Shown: one piece after another, positions 5,198 through 14,347 of the stretch
Layout of the letters: each line of letters begins with the position of its first letter
Numbering within the stretch: the stretch's first letter is position 1
Assembly (NCBI GenBank): GCA_964572455.1
Contig: CAZNFL010000005.1
Location: forward strand, 219-64,218
Reading direction: 5' to 3'
Source: an uncultured Anaerolineaceae bacterium
Lineage (GTDB): Bacteria; Chloroflexota; Anaerolineae; Anaerolineales; UBA11579
DNA length: 64,000 nt
The notes under the pieces: model-generated
Told to the model about the DNA's origin: nothing
Database searches by the model: none
The model's input: the letters and a program-made list of their open reading frames with translations, nothing else
Translations under genes and position numbers: made by a program

Positions 5198-6196
5198 TCA
5201 TTTCAAACCCATCTTCCCAAGCACTTCTTTGAGGGTGGCTTGCACCAGGGGCCGCGCTTTCTCGGTGCCTTCGTCCAGTACGCGCAGCGCATCCTTGGGA
5301 TTCTTTATTAGCTCGGCGCGGCGGGCGCGCAGCGGCTCCAGATACGCGTTGAGCGCCTCCGCCAGGCGGCGTTTCACTTCCACGTCGCCCACCTTGCCCT
5401 GGCGGTAGCGCTTTTTGAAATCTTCGATCTCGTCTTTGTTCGGGTTGAACACATCGTGATAATCGAAGACTGGGTTGCCCTCCACCGTACCCAGGTCTGT
5501 GGCGTGGATGCGCTTGGGATCGGTGTACATGCTCATGATCTTCTTGGCGGTCTCCTCAGGTGTGTCGCCCAGGCGGATGCTGTTGCCATAAGAACTGTGC
5601 ATCATGCGGTTGTCCGTACCCGGCAGCCGCGGCGTCTTGGTCAGCAGCCCTTCCGGTTCCGGGAATGTTTCCCCATACAGCGTGTTGAAACGCCGGGCGA
5701 CCTCACGGGTCAGTTCGATGTGCGGCAATTGGTCCTCGCCCACCGGCACCAAGTTGGCCTTGTATACCAAAATATCGGCGCTCTGCAGGACCGGATAAGT
5801 GAGCAAGCCTAGCGAAGGGTTTAGCCCAAGCTGCTGGATCTGTTCCTTGTAGGTCGGCACGCGCTCCAGCCGCGCCACGGTGGTGAGCATGCCGAACAGC
5901 ACAGCCAGCTGGGCATGCTCCATGAGGGCGGACTGGCGCACGAAGGTGGCCCGCTTGGGATCCAGCCCGGCCGCCAGCCAGTCCACCATCACATCGGTGA
6001 TGTTCTGCTGGATGCGGCCGGGGTGCTCATAATCGGTGGTGAGCACGTGCAGGTCGGCGATCAGGAAGAAGCATTCATAATCATCCTGCATCGCAGCCCA
6101 CTGTTCCAGGGTGCCCACCAAGTGGCCGATGTGGCGCGGCCCAGTAGGGCGGTGCCCGGTGAGTATGCGCCCCTTAGTTTTTGCTGCTGCCATCAT
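5198..6196 (-). CDS. trpS: tryptophan--tRNA ligase
   Basis: 332-aa ORF with the class I HIGH-type motif GPRHIGHLVG and TrpRS-like length. GGAGG lies 9 nt upstream of ATGATG. Confidence 0.85.
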   Translation of the reverse strand: MMAAAKTKGRILTGHRPTGPRHIGHLVGTLEQWAAMQDDYECFFLIADLHVLTTDYEHPGRIQQNITDVMVDWLAAGLDPKRATFVRQSALMEHAQLAVLFGMLTTVARLERVPTYKEQIQQLGLNPSLGLLTYPVLQSADILVYKANLVPVGEDQLPHIELTREVARRFNTLYGETFPEPEGLLTKTPRLPGTDNRMMHSSYGNSIRLGDTPEETAKKIMSMYTDPKRIHATDLGTVEGNPVFDYHDVFNPNKDEIEDFKKRYRQGKVGDVEVKRRLAEALNAYLEPLRARRAELIKNPKDALRVLDEGTEKARPLVQATLKEVLGKMGLK

Positions 6197-6212: not shown

Positions 6213-6504
6213 GTTAACCAAAAACGTTCGTCCTCAACACAAATCTATTGATTTGCATTGAGGACGAACGTTGAGTCCGTGGTGCCACCTCGATTAGTCC
6301 GCTACCTGCGAACTCGCTCTGCGCCTGTGATAACGGTGGCGTGCCGAAAGATACTAATAAGTGCTGCTTGCAGCACGTTTGGTATCTAAAACTCAGCGGT
6401 CCATTCAGCGTCGGCGTGGGACCCGGTCTCAATCCTCCCGGGCTCTCTGTGCCTTCGTTCCGGCGCTTACTCGTCCGCGTCGCGGTCTTTCAATATGCGA
6501 TTGG
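6213..6504 (-). promoter_or_regulatory. T-box riboswitch leader, probable Trp specifier (UGG)
   Basis: Read on the minus strand: an AGAGAG box (about 6450); a candidate specifier context CUGAA-UGG-A (about 6395); the T-box sequence AAUCGAGGUGGCACCACGG (6273-6296); then a perfect 15-bp terminator stem (6223-6237 / 6258-6272) followed by a U-run, 17 nt before the trpS RBS. Confidence 0.8.
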
Positions 6505-6583: not shown

Positions 6584-8482
6584 TTACTGGCACCATTCCG
6601 CATACCCATAGCTCTCCAACCCCTGCAGCAGCCCGCTGCCCGCCTCGGCGCTGAAGTTGCAGAAGCCGGCGCGGGCCGCCGCGGCTTCGTACGCGGCGAA
6701 CAACGGCAGCGCCGGCAGCTGCTCGGCAAAGATGGCTTGCGCCTGGCGCTCGGCATCACCGTAGCCAGTCTCCCCGGGCAGGCTGCGCAACGCCGCCTGG
6801 CAAGCCGCGTCGTATTCAGGGTTGGAATAGCCGCTAATGTTCCAGCCGCCCCAGCCATACTTGAAAGCGTCCAGGTCTTCGCCGGGCACGGCTTCGCTCA
6901 GATACAGATAGCAAGCAGGCTGCGACCCGTAAGGCCAGGCGAATTGCGCCAGATCGAATGCGCGGCCAAACACCGCGCCCTGCGGCCCGGACGCAAAGAT
7001 CTCGTTTGCCGGCCCGCTGGCGATCTCCACGCCCACGCTGCAATCATCCAGGCTGCTCCGAATGACCTGGGCGATGGCCAGGTCCTGCTCGCTGTCGCCG
7101 GTCGAGAGGGTGAGCTGCAAGGCCACGCCCTGCTGTGCACCGGGATAGCTCTGGTTGACCCGCATGCCATCCTCGCCCAGCACCCAGCCGAGTTCATCCA
7201 GCCGCGCATTGGCTACGGCGGGGTCGAAGGCATAAGCGGCCGCGCCGGGGTTAGCTAACGGGTGGCCGGGAGGTAAATAGGTGCCGGGCAGGTTGCCCTG
7301 CCCCCAGGCAATTTCATCGATCAGTGCCTGGCGGTCTATGCACATCGCCAGTGTCTGGCGCATGCGCGCGTCGGCGAAGAAATCGGCGCGGTCTTGAAAG
7401 ACATTGAAGCTGTTGTCGTAGCTGAGCGGTTTGATGCCGAAATCCAGATGCTCCCAATAGCCCGCCGGTGTGAAAAAGATTTGCGCCCCAACCTCCTGCA
7501 GGCTGGCAGCTTCGTCCCCTAAGCTGGTTGATGGCAGTAACAGATCGCAGGTTCCGTTCTGCAGAGCTTCGGCGCCGCCTTCAAGAAAGATAAAGTTGAG
7601 GTTGCTGAAGTAGGGCAGGCCCTCCGCCGCACGCCAGTAGTTGGGATTACGCGAAAGGGAAATGTGCTCGCCGGCGGCCCACTCGTCGATCACATAGGGC
7701 CCCCACCCCAGCGGCCTGCGTGCCGCACCTTCCTCCCCCGGCAGGTCCGCCGCGGCGATGCCCTCCCAGGCGTGGCGCGGCGCCGGCGTCCAGAAATTGG
7801 TCTGGTACCCGGGATCCAGGTAGCCCGGCAGGCCCATCCACACTGCAGTGCGCTCGTCGCTGGCGGTGTAGCTGGCGGTGCGCTCAACCTTGCTCTTGTC
7901 GCCGGGTGTTGCGGGGTCGGCATTCAGTTCAAAGGAAGAAACCGAATCGGCAGCCGTCAGCGGCGTGCCATCCGACCAGGTGAGCCCGGCCTTAAGTGTG
8001 AAGGTCGCCACCAGTTGATCCATTTGCACTTCGCCGCCGCTGTATTCGAGGATGCAATTGCCGTCCTTGCAACCTGCTGGGTACACGAGCACCCCCGGCT
8101 GCAGGCTGCGCACCTGGCCGCCGGCATCCACGATCAGCTGCCCGGCTGCCACGCTGACCGGCTGCAAGGTGGCGCCGCCGTTATCCAGGCTCGGCACGCT
8201 TTCCAGGATGACGGCTTGCGGCAAGTAGCCTTGCAGATCGAAAGGGCCGTCGTATATGGCTTGGCGAATGGCGCGGGCGCTCTGTGAATTATCTCCGTAC
8301 AAATACAACGAGTTGGGCTCTTGGTCCATGCAAATATTGAGGGTGTCTGGGCCAACGGGGGTCGGCGTGACCGTTGGCAGCGCTGCGGTGGGCGTGCCTG
8401 CCGGCTCTCCAAGGCCGCACGAGGCGAGCAGCAAGGCGGCAAGGAGAAAGGATAAGGGATGAAGGCGAAACGTTTTCGGCAT
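6584..8482 (-). CDS. ABC transporter substrate-binding lipoprotein (family 5, peptide/nickel type)
   Basis: Start chosen at the internal ATG 8482 (MPKTFRLHPLSFLLAALLLASCG, with a lipobox). Size and composition resemble SBP family 5. The longer ORF-track start runs through a repeat element. Confidence 0.7.
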   Translation of the reverse strand: MPKTFRLHPLSFLLAALLLASCGLGEPAGTPTAALPTVTPTPVGPDTLNICMDQEPNSLYLYGDNSQSARAIRQAIYDGPFDLQGYLPQAVILESVPSLDNGGATLQPVSVAAGQLIVDAGGQVRSLQPGVLVYPAGCKDGNCILEYSGGEVQMDQLVATFTLKAGLTWSDGTPLTAADSVSSFELNADPATPGDKSKVERTASYTASDERTAVWMGLPGYLDPGYQTNFWTPAPRHAWEGIAAADLPGEEGAARRPLGWGPYVIDEWAAGEHISLSRNPNYWRAAEGLPYFSNLNFIFLEGGAEALQNGTCDLLLPSTSLGDEAASLQEVGAQIFFTPAGYWEHLDFGIKPLSYDNSFNVFQDRADFFADARMRQTLAMCIDRQALIDEIAWGQGNLPGTYLPPGHPLANPGAAAYAFDPAVANARLDELGWVLGEDGMRVNQSYPGAQQGVALQLTLSTGDSEQDLAIAQVIRSSLDDCSVGVEIASGPANEIFASGPQGAVFGRAFDLAQFAWPYGSQPACYLYLSEAVPGEDLDAFKYGWGGWNISGYSNPEYDAACQAALRSLPGETGYGDAERQAQAIFAEQLPALPLFAAYEAAAARAGFCNFSAEAGSGLLQGLESYGYAEWCQ

Positions 8483-8519
8483 GCGCAGGATTATACAGGG
8501 CCCAGGCATCTTCACTCTT

Positions 8520-8553
8520 GTCATTTCGAAGGAGCGCAGCGACTGAGAAATCC
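8520..8553 (+). repeat. family 1 module (GTCATTTCGAAGG...GAGAAATCC variant)
   Basis: Head/tail hairpin ATTTC...GAAAT, located in the divergent intergenic region. Confidence 0.6.
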
Positions 8554-8606
8554 GTACTGTATTTAGTTGCAAACGAACATTTCTGTTCTGATCGAGACTC
8601 GCTTTA

Positions 8607-8634
8607 TTGAGTGACACGGATTAAGTGCTAGAAT
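8607..8634 (+). promoter_or_regulatory. sigma70-like promoter with extended -10
   Basis: TTGAGT (8607-8612), 16-bp spacer counted to the TAGAAT hexamer (8629-8634), which carries an upstream TGc extended -10 (8626-8628). It sits about 15 nt before ATG 8650 with no SD, so the leader is very short. Confidence 0.5.
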
Positions 8635-8649
8635 CAATCATCAGCCGCA

Positions 8650-9972
8650 ATGCCTACTAACCCTTCCGAAGAACTTTTACGCATCCTCGACTCCGCCCGT
8701 CGCCTGGGCGTTGAGCTCGACGAGGCCGCCGCGCAGCAATGGCTGGCCGCCGTAGCCATCTCTCCCGGCGAGGAAGATGACATCGTGATGGATGTAAAGA
8801 CCGGCGTCTTTGGCCACCGCATCACTATGCTGGACTTCAGCGGCGAGGAACTGGCCCACTTCCGCAAGATCGGCAAGCTGGTGGAATTCAGCGATATCCC
8901 CGGTAAGGTGGAAACCGCCCTGGCGCTCTCCGGCTCGGCCGCCCAATCCAAGATCCAGACCTACCCGGGTGACGCCGATTTCTTTGAGCGCGTCAACATC
9001 ATCGCTCCCACCCGCCAGGATGCCTGCCGCATCCTCGGTGAGCTGATCCGCGAGAAAGCCATGAGCACCCTGGCCGGCCCGGGCTACAAGCTTATTGAAG
9101 TAAAGATGGGCAGCTACCAACAGAACGTAGTGCGTAGTGGCAAGCAGCTGCCCAAGGATTCGCCCATCTCATGGAATACGGACGAAGTCAGCCTTGGGGC
9201 ACTGGAATTGCAAGATGAGAAAGGCAAACCGCTCACCCTCACCTGGGAGCAGGCGGCCCAAGACCCGGGCTGGTGCAAGCTGGACTGGGTGGTGGCCGAC
9301 CTGGTGCGCAAACAACTCGTCAACGCCAGCAACATGCTGGACGCCACCTGGGAAGCCCCCGACGGCGCCATCACTCCGCTGGACGGCTACCTGGACCCTT
9401 ACTTCCAGGAAGTCTATTTGGAAGCCGAGTCCATCCCACTATTCACCAAGCTGGCCAAGCAAGTAGACGGCAACGCGCTGGACCATTACGTGGAACAACT
9501 TGAAAAAGAGGCGCGCAAATACATCACCAAGGATCCTAACTTTGGCAAGGCGGCTAAACGCATGTACAACATCTTCCGCCTCACCGGCCGCTACGAGGAA
9601 GCCGCCTTCCTGCGCGAATTGTTTGACGAGCCTGCCACGGTGCTTTACCAGGTGTGGTCGCTCATCCGCACCATCGATGATTGCTTTTCTCCGGGAGTTA
9701 CATTTGAGCTGGATGCTCTGCTAGGCCAAACGGACCAATTGATCATCAACGTCACCAAGGCTTTGGAGGGTGAACAGGAAGAGGAGATCGTGCGGGAGCT
9801 GTTGCAATTGCGCGATGTCCTCTCGCGCGAGCAGGACTACGATCGTTTATCTACCCGCGCCGAAGCCGCCCGCGCCGAGTTGATCAACCTGGTGAATAAC
9901 TTCTATTACGAACGATTGACAGGGGTACCGACGATCAAAGCATATATGGTTGGTTTAGGGGACAAGAGCTAA
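8650..9972 (+). CDS. nucleotidyltransferase-fold protein of unknown function (Pol-beta/cGAS-like motif set)
   Basis: 440-aa ORF. Motif LSGS(95-96)-x11-D108aD110 (nt 8932-8979), a later beta-strand acidic residue KLD212WVV (nt 9283-9285), and a helical C-terminal half. Confidence 0.5.
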   Translation: MPTNPSEELLRILDSARRLGVELDEAAAQQWLAAVAISPGEEDDIVMDVKTGVFGHRITMLDFSGEELAHFRKIGKLVEFSDIPGKVETALALSGSAAQSKIQTYPGDADFFERVNIIAPTRQDACRILGELIREKAMSTLAGPGYKLIEVKMGSYQQNVVRSGKQLPKDSPISWNTDEVSLGALELQDEKGKPLTLTWEQAAQDPGWCKLDWVVADLVRKQLVNASNMLDATWEAPDGAITPLDGYLDPYFQEVYLEAESIPLFTKLAKQVDGNALDHYVEQLEKEARKYITKDPNFGKAAKRMYNIFRLTGRYEEAAFLRELFDEPATVLYQVWSLIRTIDDCFSPGVTFELDALLGQTDQLIINVTKALEGEQEEEIVRELLQLRDVLSREQDYDRLSTRAEAARAELINLVNNFYYERLTGVPTIKAYMVGLGDKS

Positions 9973-9989: not shown

Positions 9990-10182
9990 GTCATTCTGAG
10001 CGCTCCCCTTGTCATTCTGAGCGGGTCAATAAGACTCCACCAGAACCGCCGAACTACTCCAGTGAAGAATCCATGGAGCCTAATCTCTCCGACACCACCC
10101 TCTTCTGCGTCTCATTCTTTTCCCGTGTCATACTGAGCGATACCGCCTTTGTCATTCCGGAGTGCTCCTCCGCGAACGGACC
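9990..10182 (+). repeat. cluster of four family 1 module heads
   Basis: GTCATTCTGAGCG at 9990 and 10011 (tail AGTGAAGAATCC ends at 10072), GTCATACTGAGCG at 10127, GTCATTCCGGAGTG at 10151. Confidence 0.8.
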
Positions 10183-10713: not shown

Positions 10714-10962
10714 ATGAGCGATAAAGCCAACGACACCCATCCGCGCATGGAGGCGATTCAACTTGACCTGCTGAGGCAAGCCCCGGGGTGGCGCAAACTT
10801 GAATTAGTGGACGACCTCAACCGCACGGTTAGAGAATTGAACCTTGCCGGCCTGAGAGCGCGTTACCCACGGGATGATGAAGAAAAATTGCGCCGGAGGC
10901 TGGCAGATCTGCTGCTTGGCGCAGAACTGGCCGAAAAGGTGTATGGCCCGTATCAGCCATGA
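10714..10962 (+). CDS. small hypothetical protein, partner of the downstream NTase
   Basis: 82-aa ORF. TATAAT (10702-10707) ends 6 nt before the ATG, so the transcript may be leaderless. The stop overlaps the next start (ATGA). Confidence 0.5.
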   Translation: MSDKANDTHPRMEAIQLDLLRQAPGWRKLELVDDLNRTVRELNLAGLRARYPRDDEEKLRRRLADLLLGAELAEKVYGPYQP

Positions 10963-11540
10963 ATGATTTGTCGTCGATTTCTATCGCCCTTAAAGTAACG
11001 AGAATACTGGAGGAATTAAACATTGAGTACCTCGTTGTAGGTTCGCTTGCCTCAGCTCTTCATGGAGTCAGCCGTTCCACGCTGGACGGTGACTTGATTG
11101 CCGACCTTCAGGCCCACAACATCCAAGGCCTCGTCGATCGCCTGGGCGCAGAATTCTTTGCCGATCAACAGATGATGCTGAATGCGATAAATCATAAAGG
11201 TTCTTTTAACTTGATCCATAGAGCCAGTATGTTCAAGATAGATATTTTCATTCCCAAAGATTCGTTTAACAGTAGCGAACTGAAACGGCGACAGCGGCAT
11301 CCCTTGACAAAAGATAGTGGAGATTCCGCTTTTGTAGGCACCGCCGAGGATACAATCCTGGCAAAGTTGCGCTGGTATCGACTGGGGAATGAGGTTTCCG
11401 ACCGCCAATGGAAGGATGTTACAGAAATCCTAAAAATTCAGGGCGGCCGGTTGGACCTAAAGTACATGCGTGAATGGGCTGAAAAAATCGGAGTAAGTGA
11501 CCTGCTGACTAAAGCGCTCGCCGAGACAAAAATGCAATGA
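10959..11540 (+). CDS. minimal nucleotidyltransferase (MNT-like) family protein
   Basis: 193-aa ORF with VVG28S-x13-D43gD45L, the Pol-beta NTase signature. 4-nt overlaps with both neighbours. Confidence 0.65.
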   Translation: MNDLSSISIALKVTRILEELNIEYLVVGSLASALHGVSRSTLDGDLIADLQAHNIQGLVDRLGAEFFADQQMMLNAINHKGSFNLIHRASMFKIDIFIPKDSFNSSELKRRQRHPLTKDSGDSAFVGTAEDTILAKLRWYRLGNEVSDRQWKDVTEILKIQGGRLDLKYMREWAEKIGVSDLLTKALAETKMQ

Positions 11541-14285: not shown

Positions 14286-14347
14286 GTCATTCCGAGCGGC
14301 ATAATGAAATCACTACCAGATAGGGACCCAACACAGCGAGGAATCCC
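14286..14347 (+). repeat. family 1 module
   Basis: GTCATTCCGAGCGG ... CAGCGAGGAATCC. Confidence 0.8.

Follow-up and report, generated by a model that had tools for sequence, protein, structure and literature searches.

Cap18 was named as an uncharacterised accessory gene of a type III cyclic-oligonucleotide-based antiphage signalling system (CBASS), in which its catalytic mutant left phage protection unaffected. Cap18-type exonucleases are found in about 4% of CBASS operons, and the clade that includes E. coli Cap18 (WP_001258365.1) is reported to be inactive on DNA and RNA, to bind neither, and to be selective for 2'-5' linkages, hydrolysing 2'-5' oligoadenylate and those dinucleotide intermediates of bacterial cGAS that carry a 2'-5' linkage (preprint 10.1101/2025.03.04.641389). 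Here, we describe a gene for a 440-residue nucleotidyltransferase (NTase) in a stretch of 64 kb from the genome of an uncultured Anaerolineaceae bacterium (hereafter the window), whose relatives in other genomes are typically preceded by a gene for a Cap18-type exonuclease. By analogy with the characterised members of that clade, we put a probability of roughly 0.4 on a model in which the NTase makes a 2'-5'-linked nucleotide product, while the exonuclease turns this product over or sets its threshold. The model is built on the partner gene, because the characterised relatives of its product are 2'-5'-specific phosphodiesterases that act on the products of NTases; it is from this that we infer the product, its linkage type and any role in signalling.

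A first-pass annotation of the window had presented the NTase as an orphan without an adjacent partner gene. The absence of a partner is true of the window itself, but the enzyme is no orphan: at least 6149 homologs were detected, all of them annotated as "hypothetical" and forming 555 clusters at 50% identity, and a conserved partner is present in relatives. In the first three homolog loci inspected, a gene encoding a protein of about 185-198 aa lay directly upstream on the same strand, with matches to the RNase_T and Rv2179c-like Pfam families. The survey of gene neighbourhoods was made on the best 80 loci among at least 584 species-level reference genomes with a relative of the NTase, and 69 of these 80 carried the exonuclease gene directly upstream on the same strand, with gaps of -37 to +281 nt. 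Among more diverged metagenomic loci, whose NTases are 36-66% identical to the window protein, it was adjacent in 40 of 80, in four different arrangements (upstream of the NTase gene, co-directional or divergent, and downstream of it, convergent or co-directional). As the linkage survives rearrangement, we argue that the two genes are functionally connected. In four loci (L001, L013, L014, and L015), the tblastn match or called gene of the exonuclease extends 7-37 nt beyond the start codon of the NTase, which would suggest translational coupling if the open reading frames (ORFs) truly overlap.

The partner is considerably closer to Cap18 (PDB entry 7T2S, phmmer E 3e-36) than to RNase T (E around 1e-5). 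It aligns with E. coli Cap18 without gaps over 173 residues at 42% identity (E 8e-53), and matches the PADLOC model PDLC00753, "Effector/Exonuclease", over its full length with E-values of 1e-54 to 1e-63; from NCBIfam, only generic DEDD models were recovered, all below threshold. The DEDDh residues, N100, P18, the Phe of the NPFG motif, and V/I58 are conserved among 76 exonuclease sequences. Literature searches for an NTase/exonuclease system in Anaerolineae found nothing relevant, and a two-gene housekeeping module that joins a Cap18-type exonuclease to an enzyme that is not a CD-NTase (cGAS/DncV-like nucleotidyltransferase) appears to be undescribed.

The fold of the NTase was assessed with two AlphaFold models, one built from 43 close homologs (pLDDT 74.8) and one from 88 sequences reaching down to about 30% identity (pLDDT 87.6, pTM 0.87). 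The core of the second model consists of a helix (65-78), a strand (87-93) followed by G95-S96, a short helix (95-98), a strand (108-118) that opens with D108-A-D110-F, a helix (122-139), and a strand (146-155). This is the order beta1-GS-alpha2-beta2(DxD)-alpha3-beta3 of NTases of the polymerase beta (Pol-beta) superfamily. A beta-rich insert (160-243) and an all-helical lobe (259-438) follow, and the N-terminal part is mostly helical apart from a small hairpin at 45-56, much as the first-pass annotation had described its two terminal domains.

When the models were compared to the PDB with Foldseek, the only significant matches were the three entries for Mg662 of Megavirus chilensis (4AMS, 4XUL, and 4AMQ), which were recovered with both models at a probability of 1.00, with E-values of 7.6e-7 to 2e-5 and TM-scores of 0.48-0.61 over about 410 aligned columns. 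These structures were deposited as "a new nucleotidyl transferase", and 4XUL contains GTP according to its title; literature searches on Mg662 and the virophage V21 NTases found no published function for Mg662. In BFVD, giant-virus and virophage proteins were matched with E-values of 2e-13 to 6e-6 and TM-scores of 0.57-0.63, among them proteins of Zamilon (V6BPH6, 442 aa) and Pithovirus ("Nucleotidyl transferase"), a "V21 virophage-like protein", and proteins of the Yellowstone Lake and Qinghai Lake virophages, Mavirus, Klosneuvirus, and Tupanvirus. Sequence searches of Pfam, NCBIfam, PADLOC, and the PDB with the single protein and with two family profiles (A1 and A2) returned only noise, such as MiaE at E 0.06 and helical-bundle matches; Mg662 was not recovered from the PDB by the family profiles, nor was any sequence relative of the NTase found in a scan of IMG/VR. 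As modelled, the link to Mg662 and the viral proteins is thus one of fold only, at 10-15% identity. By motif and modelled fold the protein belongs to the Pol-beta superfamily, with a predicted nucleotidyltransferase activity, and a structure prediction, which had been proposed as a check on the original assignment, did recover an NTase fold.

The assignment had started from a sequence pattern, G[GS]-x9-13-Dx[DE], and all elements listed for it are present in the translated ORF, including the 440-aa reading frame itself, the 11 residues between G95-S96 and D108-A-D110, and the downstream KLD212WVV. On its own, the bare pattern means little: it occurs in 15% of shuffles of the NTase protein, and across the ORFs of the window at a rate of 0.135 per 440 aa. 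Rather, it is the comparison across homologs that makes the motif real. We base its reality, and that of the promoter discussed below, on comparative evidence, namely conservation in relatives and the match of the model to a solved NTase, not on a pattern in a single sequence. In an alignment of 29 diverse sequences down to 29% identity (A2), G95 is present in 28 and S96 in all 29, and in a larger alignment of 88 sequences down to about 30% identity (A4) both GS and DxD are invariant. The residue before G95 is a Ser here and a Ser or Ala across the family, not a bulky hydrophobic residue; the G[GS] part of the annotated "hG[GS]" signature therefore stands, while its strict form is followed only loosely. 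Invariant in the 29 sequences are S96, D108, D110, G154, W175, D231, W234, D245, Y280, R304, Y306, N307, and R310, and overall the catalytic residues and about 15 other positions persist unchanged down to 29% identity. The helix that carries K300, R304, and R310 is a candidate phosphate-binding motif.

The third metal-binding carboxylate was assigned to D212 in the first-pass annotation. While the KLDWVV strand is present, this role for D212 is doubtful, since the position is acidic in only 22 of the 29 sequences (D in 21, E in one, and otherwise G, S, A, or N), as compared to 25 of 29 for E150 and to full conservation of D231 and D245. In the NTase-fold classification of Kuchta et al. (2009), the third carboxylate reportedly has its canonical h[DE]h position on beta3, which is where E150 lies. 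D212 is thus probably not the third catalytic carboxylate; most likely this is E150, which fits the canonical topology best, although D231 and D245 are the best conserved. Every well-aligned sequence keeps E150 or D212, and none lacks both.

The family has no Pfam or NCBIfam model. The best 80 reference species genomes all belong to Anaerolineae, including that of the cultured Bellilinea caldifistulae GOMI-1 (L023), in which the two-gene exonuclease-NTase operon is intact, and across these 80 genomes the NTase is 60-89% identical to that of the window in the best tblastn segment. The ratio of nonsynonymous to synonymous substitution rates (dN/dS) between the window gene and its closest relative, at locus L006, is 0.07, indicating strong purifying selection. 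A mobile-element origin was considered and rejected, as tblastn searches of phages and plasmids and the scan of IMG/VR viral contigs revealed no copies of the NTase. The gene is a chromosomal, core, syntenic, and vertically inherited gene of Anaerolineae. A homolog at locus L087, from a record titled Armatimonadota (GCA_050942735.1), is 75% identical to that of a Chloroflexota metagenome-assembled genome (L074); this is far above the cross-phylum expectation, and the contig may have been mis-binned or the gene recently transferred.

Comparison with relatives also accounts for the unusual 5' end of the gene in the window. The first-pass annotation had noted an extended -10 promoter and a nearly leaderless layout, and both are supported: 15 nt separate the -10 from the ATG of the NTase gene, and a Shine-Dalgarno sequence is absent. 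A consensus scan by itself would carry little weight, with one promoter-like site observed in 2 kb and 0.8 expected by chance. Promoter regions were compared by direct motif anchoring, which identified the element TGCTAGAAT in L006, L008, and L009, and TGCTACAAT in L010 and L012. In L008, L009, L010, and L012, one of these extended -10 elements lies 8-11 nt before the ATG of the exonuclease gene, which implies a leaderless operon mRNA, and the NTase gene has an AAGGAG Shine-Dalgarno sequence of its own. In the window the identical TGCTAGAAT is found 15 nt before the ATG of the NTase gene instead, and in L006 (89% identical by tblastn) 18 nt before it; both lack the Shine-Dalgarno sequence, and L006 also lacks the exonuclease gene. 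Synteny with L005 is otherwise kept, in the order tryptophanyl-tRNA synthetase (TrpRS), substrate-binding protein (SBP), [exonuclease], NTase, PNPOx, ..., MgsA, His_Phos_1, DUF3090.

Because the window keeps the TGCTAGAAT element that precedes the exonuclease gene in L008 and L009, the loss appears to be secondary, and the simplest reading is that a deletion of the exonuclease ORF brought the NTase gene directly behind the promoter of the operon. Such a deletion would explain both the "own strong promoter" and the near-leaderless mRNA that were noted at first. A pseudogene remnant or relocated copy of the exonuclease gene within the 64 kb was rejected, as a tblastn search of the window with the partner exonuclease gave nothing below E 0.5. 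Loci without the exonuclease, among them L006, L044, and L056, fall into at least 3-4 separate groups, which suggests that its loss or relocation is recurrent. The positions of the features discussed here are collected in the table below.

Table. Features of the nucleotidyltransferase locus, with positions counted from the first nucleotide of the window.
Feature	Positions	Strand	Remarks
Coding sequence of Pol-beta-fold nucleotidyltransferase, 440 aa, ATG start	8650..9972	+	Uncharacterised family; Mg662/virophage-V21-like fold
G95-S96 codons, G[GS] motif after beta1	8932..8937	+	From alignments and model
D108-A-D110 codons, DxD at the start of beta2	8971..8979	+	Invariant; predicted metal-binding role
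E150 codon, I-E-V on beta3	9097..9099	+	Preferred candidate for third carboxylate; E/D in 25/29
D212 codon, KLDWVV	9283..9285	+	Third acidic residue of the first-pass annotation; 21 D and 1 E of 29
D231-D245 codons, NMLD-x-TW...PLDG	9340..9384	+	Two invariant Asp and invariant W234
K300-R310 codons, K-x2-KR-x-YN-x2-R helix of the C-terminal helical lobe	9547..9579	+	R304/Y306/N307 invariant, K300 and R310 nearly so; candidate phosphate-binding motif
Promoter: -35-like TTGAGT (8607-8612), 16-nt spacer, extended -10 TGcTAGAAT (8626-8634; TAGAAT 8629-8634)	8607..8634	+	Consensus scan; homologous to the exonuclease-NTase operon promoter of relatives
Short leader	8635..8649	+	By comparison, the site occupied in relatives by the gene for the Cap18-like exonuclease (~185 aa) and the NTase Shine-Dalgarno sequence

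Taken together, the proposed model is as follows. The ancestral state is a leaderless two-gene operon, with the gene for a Cap18-type DEDDh exonuclease followed by that for the NTase. In the NTase, D108, D110, and a third carboxylate, most likely E150, would bind two metal ions, and the nucleoside triphosphate would be held by the C-terminal lobe, through its basic helix with K300, R304, and R310. The enzyme would then form a di- or oligonucleotide with a 2'-5' linkage, either linear or cyclic, which the partner exonuclease, whose CBASS relatives are selective for such linkages, may remove or keep below a threshold. In the window and in L006, the exonuclease gene was deleted, leaving the NTase gene behind the operon promoter and still under purifying selection. 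Of these elements, the present analysis shows the fold, the conserved motifs, the linkage to the partner, the loss of that partner, and the selection. The signalling role that was suggested at first gains indirect support from the Cap18-type partner in relatives; no effector that could read such a signal is linked to the gene.

Several observations weigh against this model. The NTase has no detectable likeness to CD-NTases or OAS by PADLOC, Foldseek, or hhalign. The 2'-5' specificity of the exonuclease clade comes from one preprint and three enzymes, which are 36-52% identical to the Anaerolineae proteins. An adjacent exonuclease gene is missing from a whole clade whose NTases are about 50% identical to the window protein, from about 14% of close relatives, and from the window. 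When ORFs were clustered over about 160 loci, no effector or receptor gene was found to be linked to the NTase gene, and only the exonuclease was widely conserved, the other recurrent neighbours being GlyRS, DnaG, TrpRS, MgsA, and comparable housekeeping genes; an apparent third "family", of 538 aa, was discarded, as its members were ORFs read antisense to the NTase gene where the GC content is high. Literature searches found no activity data for any member of the family, nor for Mg662. Finally, a few distant homologs occur in secreted, multidomain, or biosynthetic-cluster contexts, which would be better explained by chemistry on small molecules or glycans than by signalling inside the cell.

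Among the alternatives, the one that fares best is that the NTase adds untemplated nucleotides to the 3' end of a stable RNA or tRNA, and that its DEDDh partner trims them, comparable to the CCA-adding enzyme and RNase T or to tailing by TENT5/FAM46. The sharing of an operon by an NTase and a DEDDh exonuclease would fit this, as would the matches of the partner to RNase_T and Rv2179c-like families, the very high conservation, and the surroundings of the gene in relatives, which contain housekeeping genes for TrpRS, glycyl-tRNA synthetase (GlyRS), DnaG, and RpoD. In addition, the next fold matches after Mg662 were FAM46A and FAM46C, with E-values of 7e-3 to 0.05. However, these matches are non-significant, with TM-scores of 0.14-0.19, and are found among other non-significant bilobal NTases (ClCdnE, MiD51, and DwCdnB). 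No recognisable RNA-binding domain was detected by Pfam searches with the protein and the profile, and the partner is much nearer to Cap18, whose clade is reported to neither cleave nor bind DNA or RNA (10.1101/2025.03.04.641389), than to RNase T. We regard a role at RNA 3' ends as unlikely.

A second alternative is nucleotidylyl or phospho transfer to a small molecule, glycan, or protein, as in adenylylation or LicD/fukutin-like reactions, with the exonuclease linkage being secondary. It draws on four distant homologs of about 30% identity with intact catalytic residues. The first, P0262 (locus L090, 693-4568), has a signal peptide and AbfB, FBA, lectin, and PLAT modules ahead of its NTase module, and is encoded near a gene for a TonB-dependent receptor. 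The second, P0183 (locus L091, 4001-7204), joins a PQQ-like propeller to the NTase module within a cluster that contains genes for NRPS-like, PLD, carbamoyltransferase, GT25, and P450 proteins. The N-termini of P0210 and P0251 resemble signal peptides. That the invariant residues are kept in such secreted or biosynthetic contexts, and that many genomes carry the NTase without an adjacent exonuclease, would be expected under this alternative. Against it, the window protein lacks a signal peptide and was not matched by models for LicD, aminoglycoside NTases, or Fic-type proteins, and the sole widely conserved neighbour encodes a nucleotide-linkage hydrolase, retained in four arrangements. Such chemistry seems to us an improbable main function of the family.

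It is still less probable that the two genes form a degenerate or minimal CBASS-like antiphage system, in which the NTase is a cyclase analogue accompanied by Cap18 and the effector is encoded elsewhere. The Cap18-type partner and its match to the PADLOC exonuclease model speak for it. The first-pass annotation had called the catalytic triad of the NTase cGAS/Pol-beta-like; a likeness to cGAS was not supported. PADLOC yielded no family for the NTase at E<=10, and searches of Pfam with the protein and profiles found no SMODS, Mab-21, CD-NTase, NTP_transf_2, or Polbeta model. Aligned to the CBASS cyclase CdnC with hhalign, the family profile reached a probability of 0.9%. The CD-NTases in the Foldseek results were non-significant (E 0.12 for ClCdnE and 0.2 for DwCdnB, with TM-scores of about 0.2), and no entry for cGAS, DncV, or OAS was present among the top 50 PDB matches. 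CD-NTase membership was rejected on these grounds. Furthermore, the NTase gene is a strongly conserved, vertically inherited core gene under purifying selection, absent from the phages and plasmids searched, set among housekeeping genes instead of defence islands, and linked to no effector gene. The initial remark that the locus does not fit known CBASS or toxin-antitoxin layouts agrees with these results, as neither a Cap effector nor a HEPN gene is a neighbour. Lastly, a catalytically inert NTase-fold protein (a pseudoenzyme or scaffold) could be argued from the ambiguous third carboxylate and from the activity being a predicted one, but is hard to credit given that every well-aligned member keeps GS and DxD, that many polar residues are likewise invariant, and that selection is strongly purifying.

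The surroundings of the gene in the window agree with the first-pass annotation, which had listed a divergent peptide SBP and a convergent PPOX-type gene: these are a gene for an SBP_bac_5 lipoprotein and one for a PNPOx-like protein (PNPOx_N). The SBP ORF, listed at 6584-8617 (-) with 677 aa and a GTG start at 8617, is probably over-extended, as its homologs measure 612-634 aa; the true start is probably M46 at 8482, which begins the lipoprotein-like signal MPKTFRL... A perfect TATAAT lies 7 nt upstream of this ATG on the minus strand (8495..8490), and L006, L008, and L009 share the conserved motif GGATTATAC, so that the divergent SBP gene also looks leaderless. Further along, the TrpRS gene at 5198-6196 (-) is preceded by a T-box leader at 6257-6492 (-), which scores 108 bits against Rfam RF00230 (E 6e-23). 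Such a leader ahead of a class I Trp/Tyr-type tRNA synthetase gene is ordinary, and confirms the housekeeping context.

On the other side of the NTase gene, the intergenic region directly 3' of it contains three copies of the 13-mer GTCATTCTGAGCG, at 9990-10002, 10011-10023, and 10127-10139 (+). This is a dispersed short repeat, with 10 occurrences in the window when one mismatch is allowed (0.1 expected); the others are at 14286, 17582, 25467, 25602, 32611, 32639, and 50345. RNA structure in this intergenic region was considered and rejected (z = -0.22). Two genes away, an 82-aa ORF (10714-10962, +) overlaps by 4 nt (ATGA) with a 193-aa ORF (10959-11540, +) that carries an NTase-like motif of its own, G-S-x13-D-G-D (VVGSLASALHGVSRSTLDGDL). 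Neither ORF has a sequence match in Pfam, NCBIfam, PADLOC, or the PDB, and L005 has a 193-aa gene in a similar position, also without a Pfam match; the two may be a small NTase/antitoxin-like pair.

Returning to the model of a 2'-5'-forming NTase, its consequences would reach beyond this locus. If correct, the family would join cGAS/CD-NTases and OAS as a third lineage of nucleotidyltransferases that form 2'-5' linkages, and would be the first of them whose genomic signature is that of a vertically inherited core gene and not of an immune gene. It would also provide a suggested function for a bacterial family of more than 6,000 proteins and, by fold, for Mg662 and its counterparts in virophages and giant viruses. 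By analogy, Cap18-type 2'-5' phosphodiesterases would exist outside CBASS, which bears on the evolution of the accessory gene. A broader proposal, which we make only tentatively and consider rather doubtful as yet, is that Anaerolineae and some other Chloroflexota possess an intracellular housekeeping pathway built on a 2'-5'-linked nucleotide or oligonucleotide. Its synthase would be this NTase family, whose sequences show no relation to those of cGAS, CD-NTases, and OAS, and its hydrolase the Cap18-type exonuclease. Were such a pathway to exist, CBASS would have borrowed its exonuclease accessory from a non-defence pathway, or lent it to one, and the shared fold of the synthase would point to related chemistry in giant viruses and virophages (Mg662 and Sputnik-V21-like proteins). 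The presence of the intact operon in the cultured B. caldifistulae GOMI-1 makes the idea directly testable. Even if the model proves wrong, what remains is a well-delimited new NTase family and a documented natural knockout of its partner.

Compared with known systems, the NTase has the GS...DxD signature in common with the NTases of MNT/HEPN toxin-antitoxin pairs, but at 440 aa the protein is far larger than the ~100-150 aa of MNT, has two extra domains, and has no HEPN neighbour here or in the homolog loci. The FAM46/TENT5 poly(A) polymerases and MiD51 resemble it weakly in fold, each with an NTase lobe and a helical lobe; they are eukaryotic, however, without sequence similarity, and their matches are non-significant (E 7e-3 to 0.2, TM-scores of 0.14-0.24). 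The CBASS CD-NTases (such as E. coli upec-117 CdnC, ClCdnE, and DwCdnB) likewise have a Pol-beta core with GS/DxD and a helical second lobe, and in about 4% of CBASS operons, as in the relatives described here, a Cap18-type exonuclease accompanies the NTase. In contrast to CBASS, the present NTase gene comes without an effector gene, and is a core, syntenic, vertical gene and not part of a mobile defence island. Mg662 and the virophage V21-like proteins match over the whole chain, with an NTase core, a helical C-terminal lobe, and a similar length, but lack detectable sequence homology, and they belong to viruses of eukaryotes and not to free-living Chloroflexota. The closest known relative of the partner is the CBASS-associated Cap18, with which it has the conserved residues, 42% identity, and a full-length PADLOC match in common. 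They differ in company: the Anaerolineae exonuclease, whose specificity would by analogy be that of Cap18, shares its two-gene housekeeping operon with an enzyme that is no CD-NTase.

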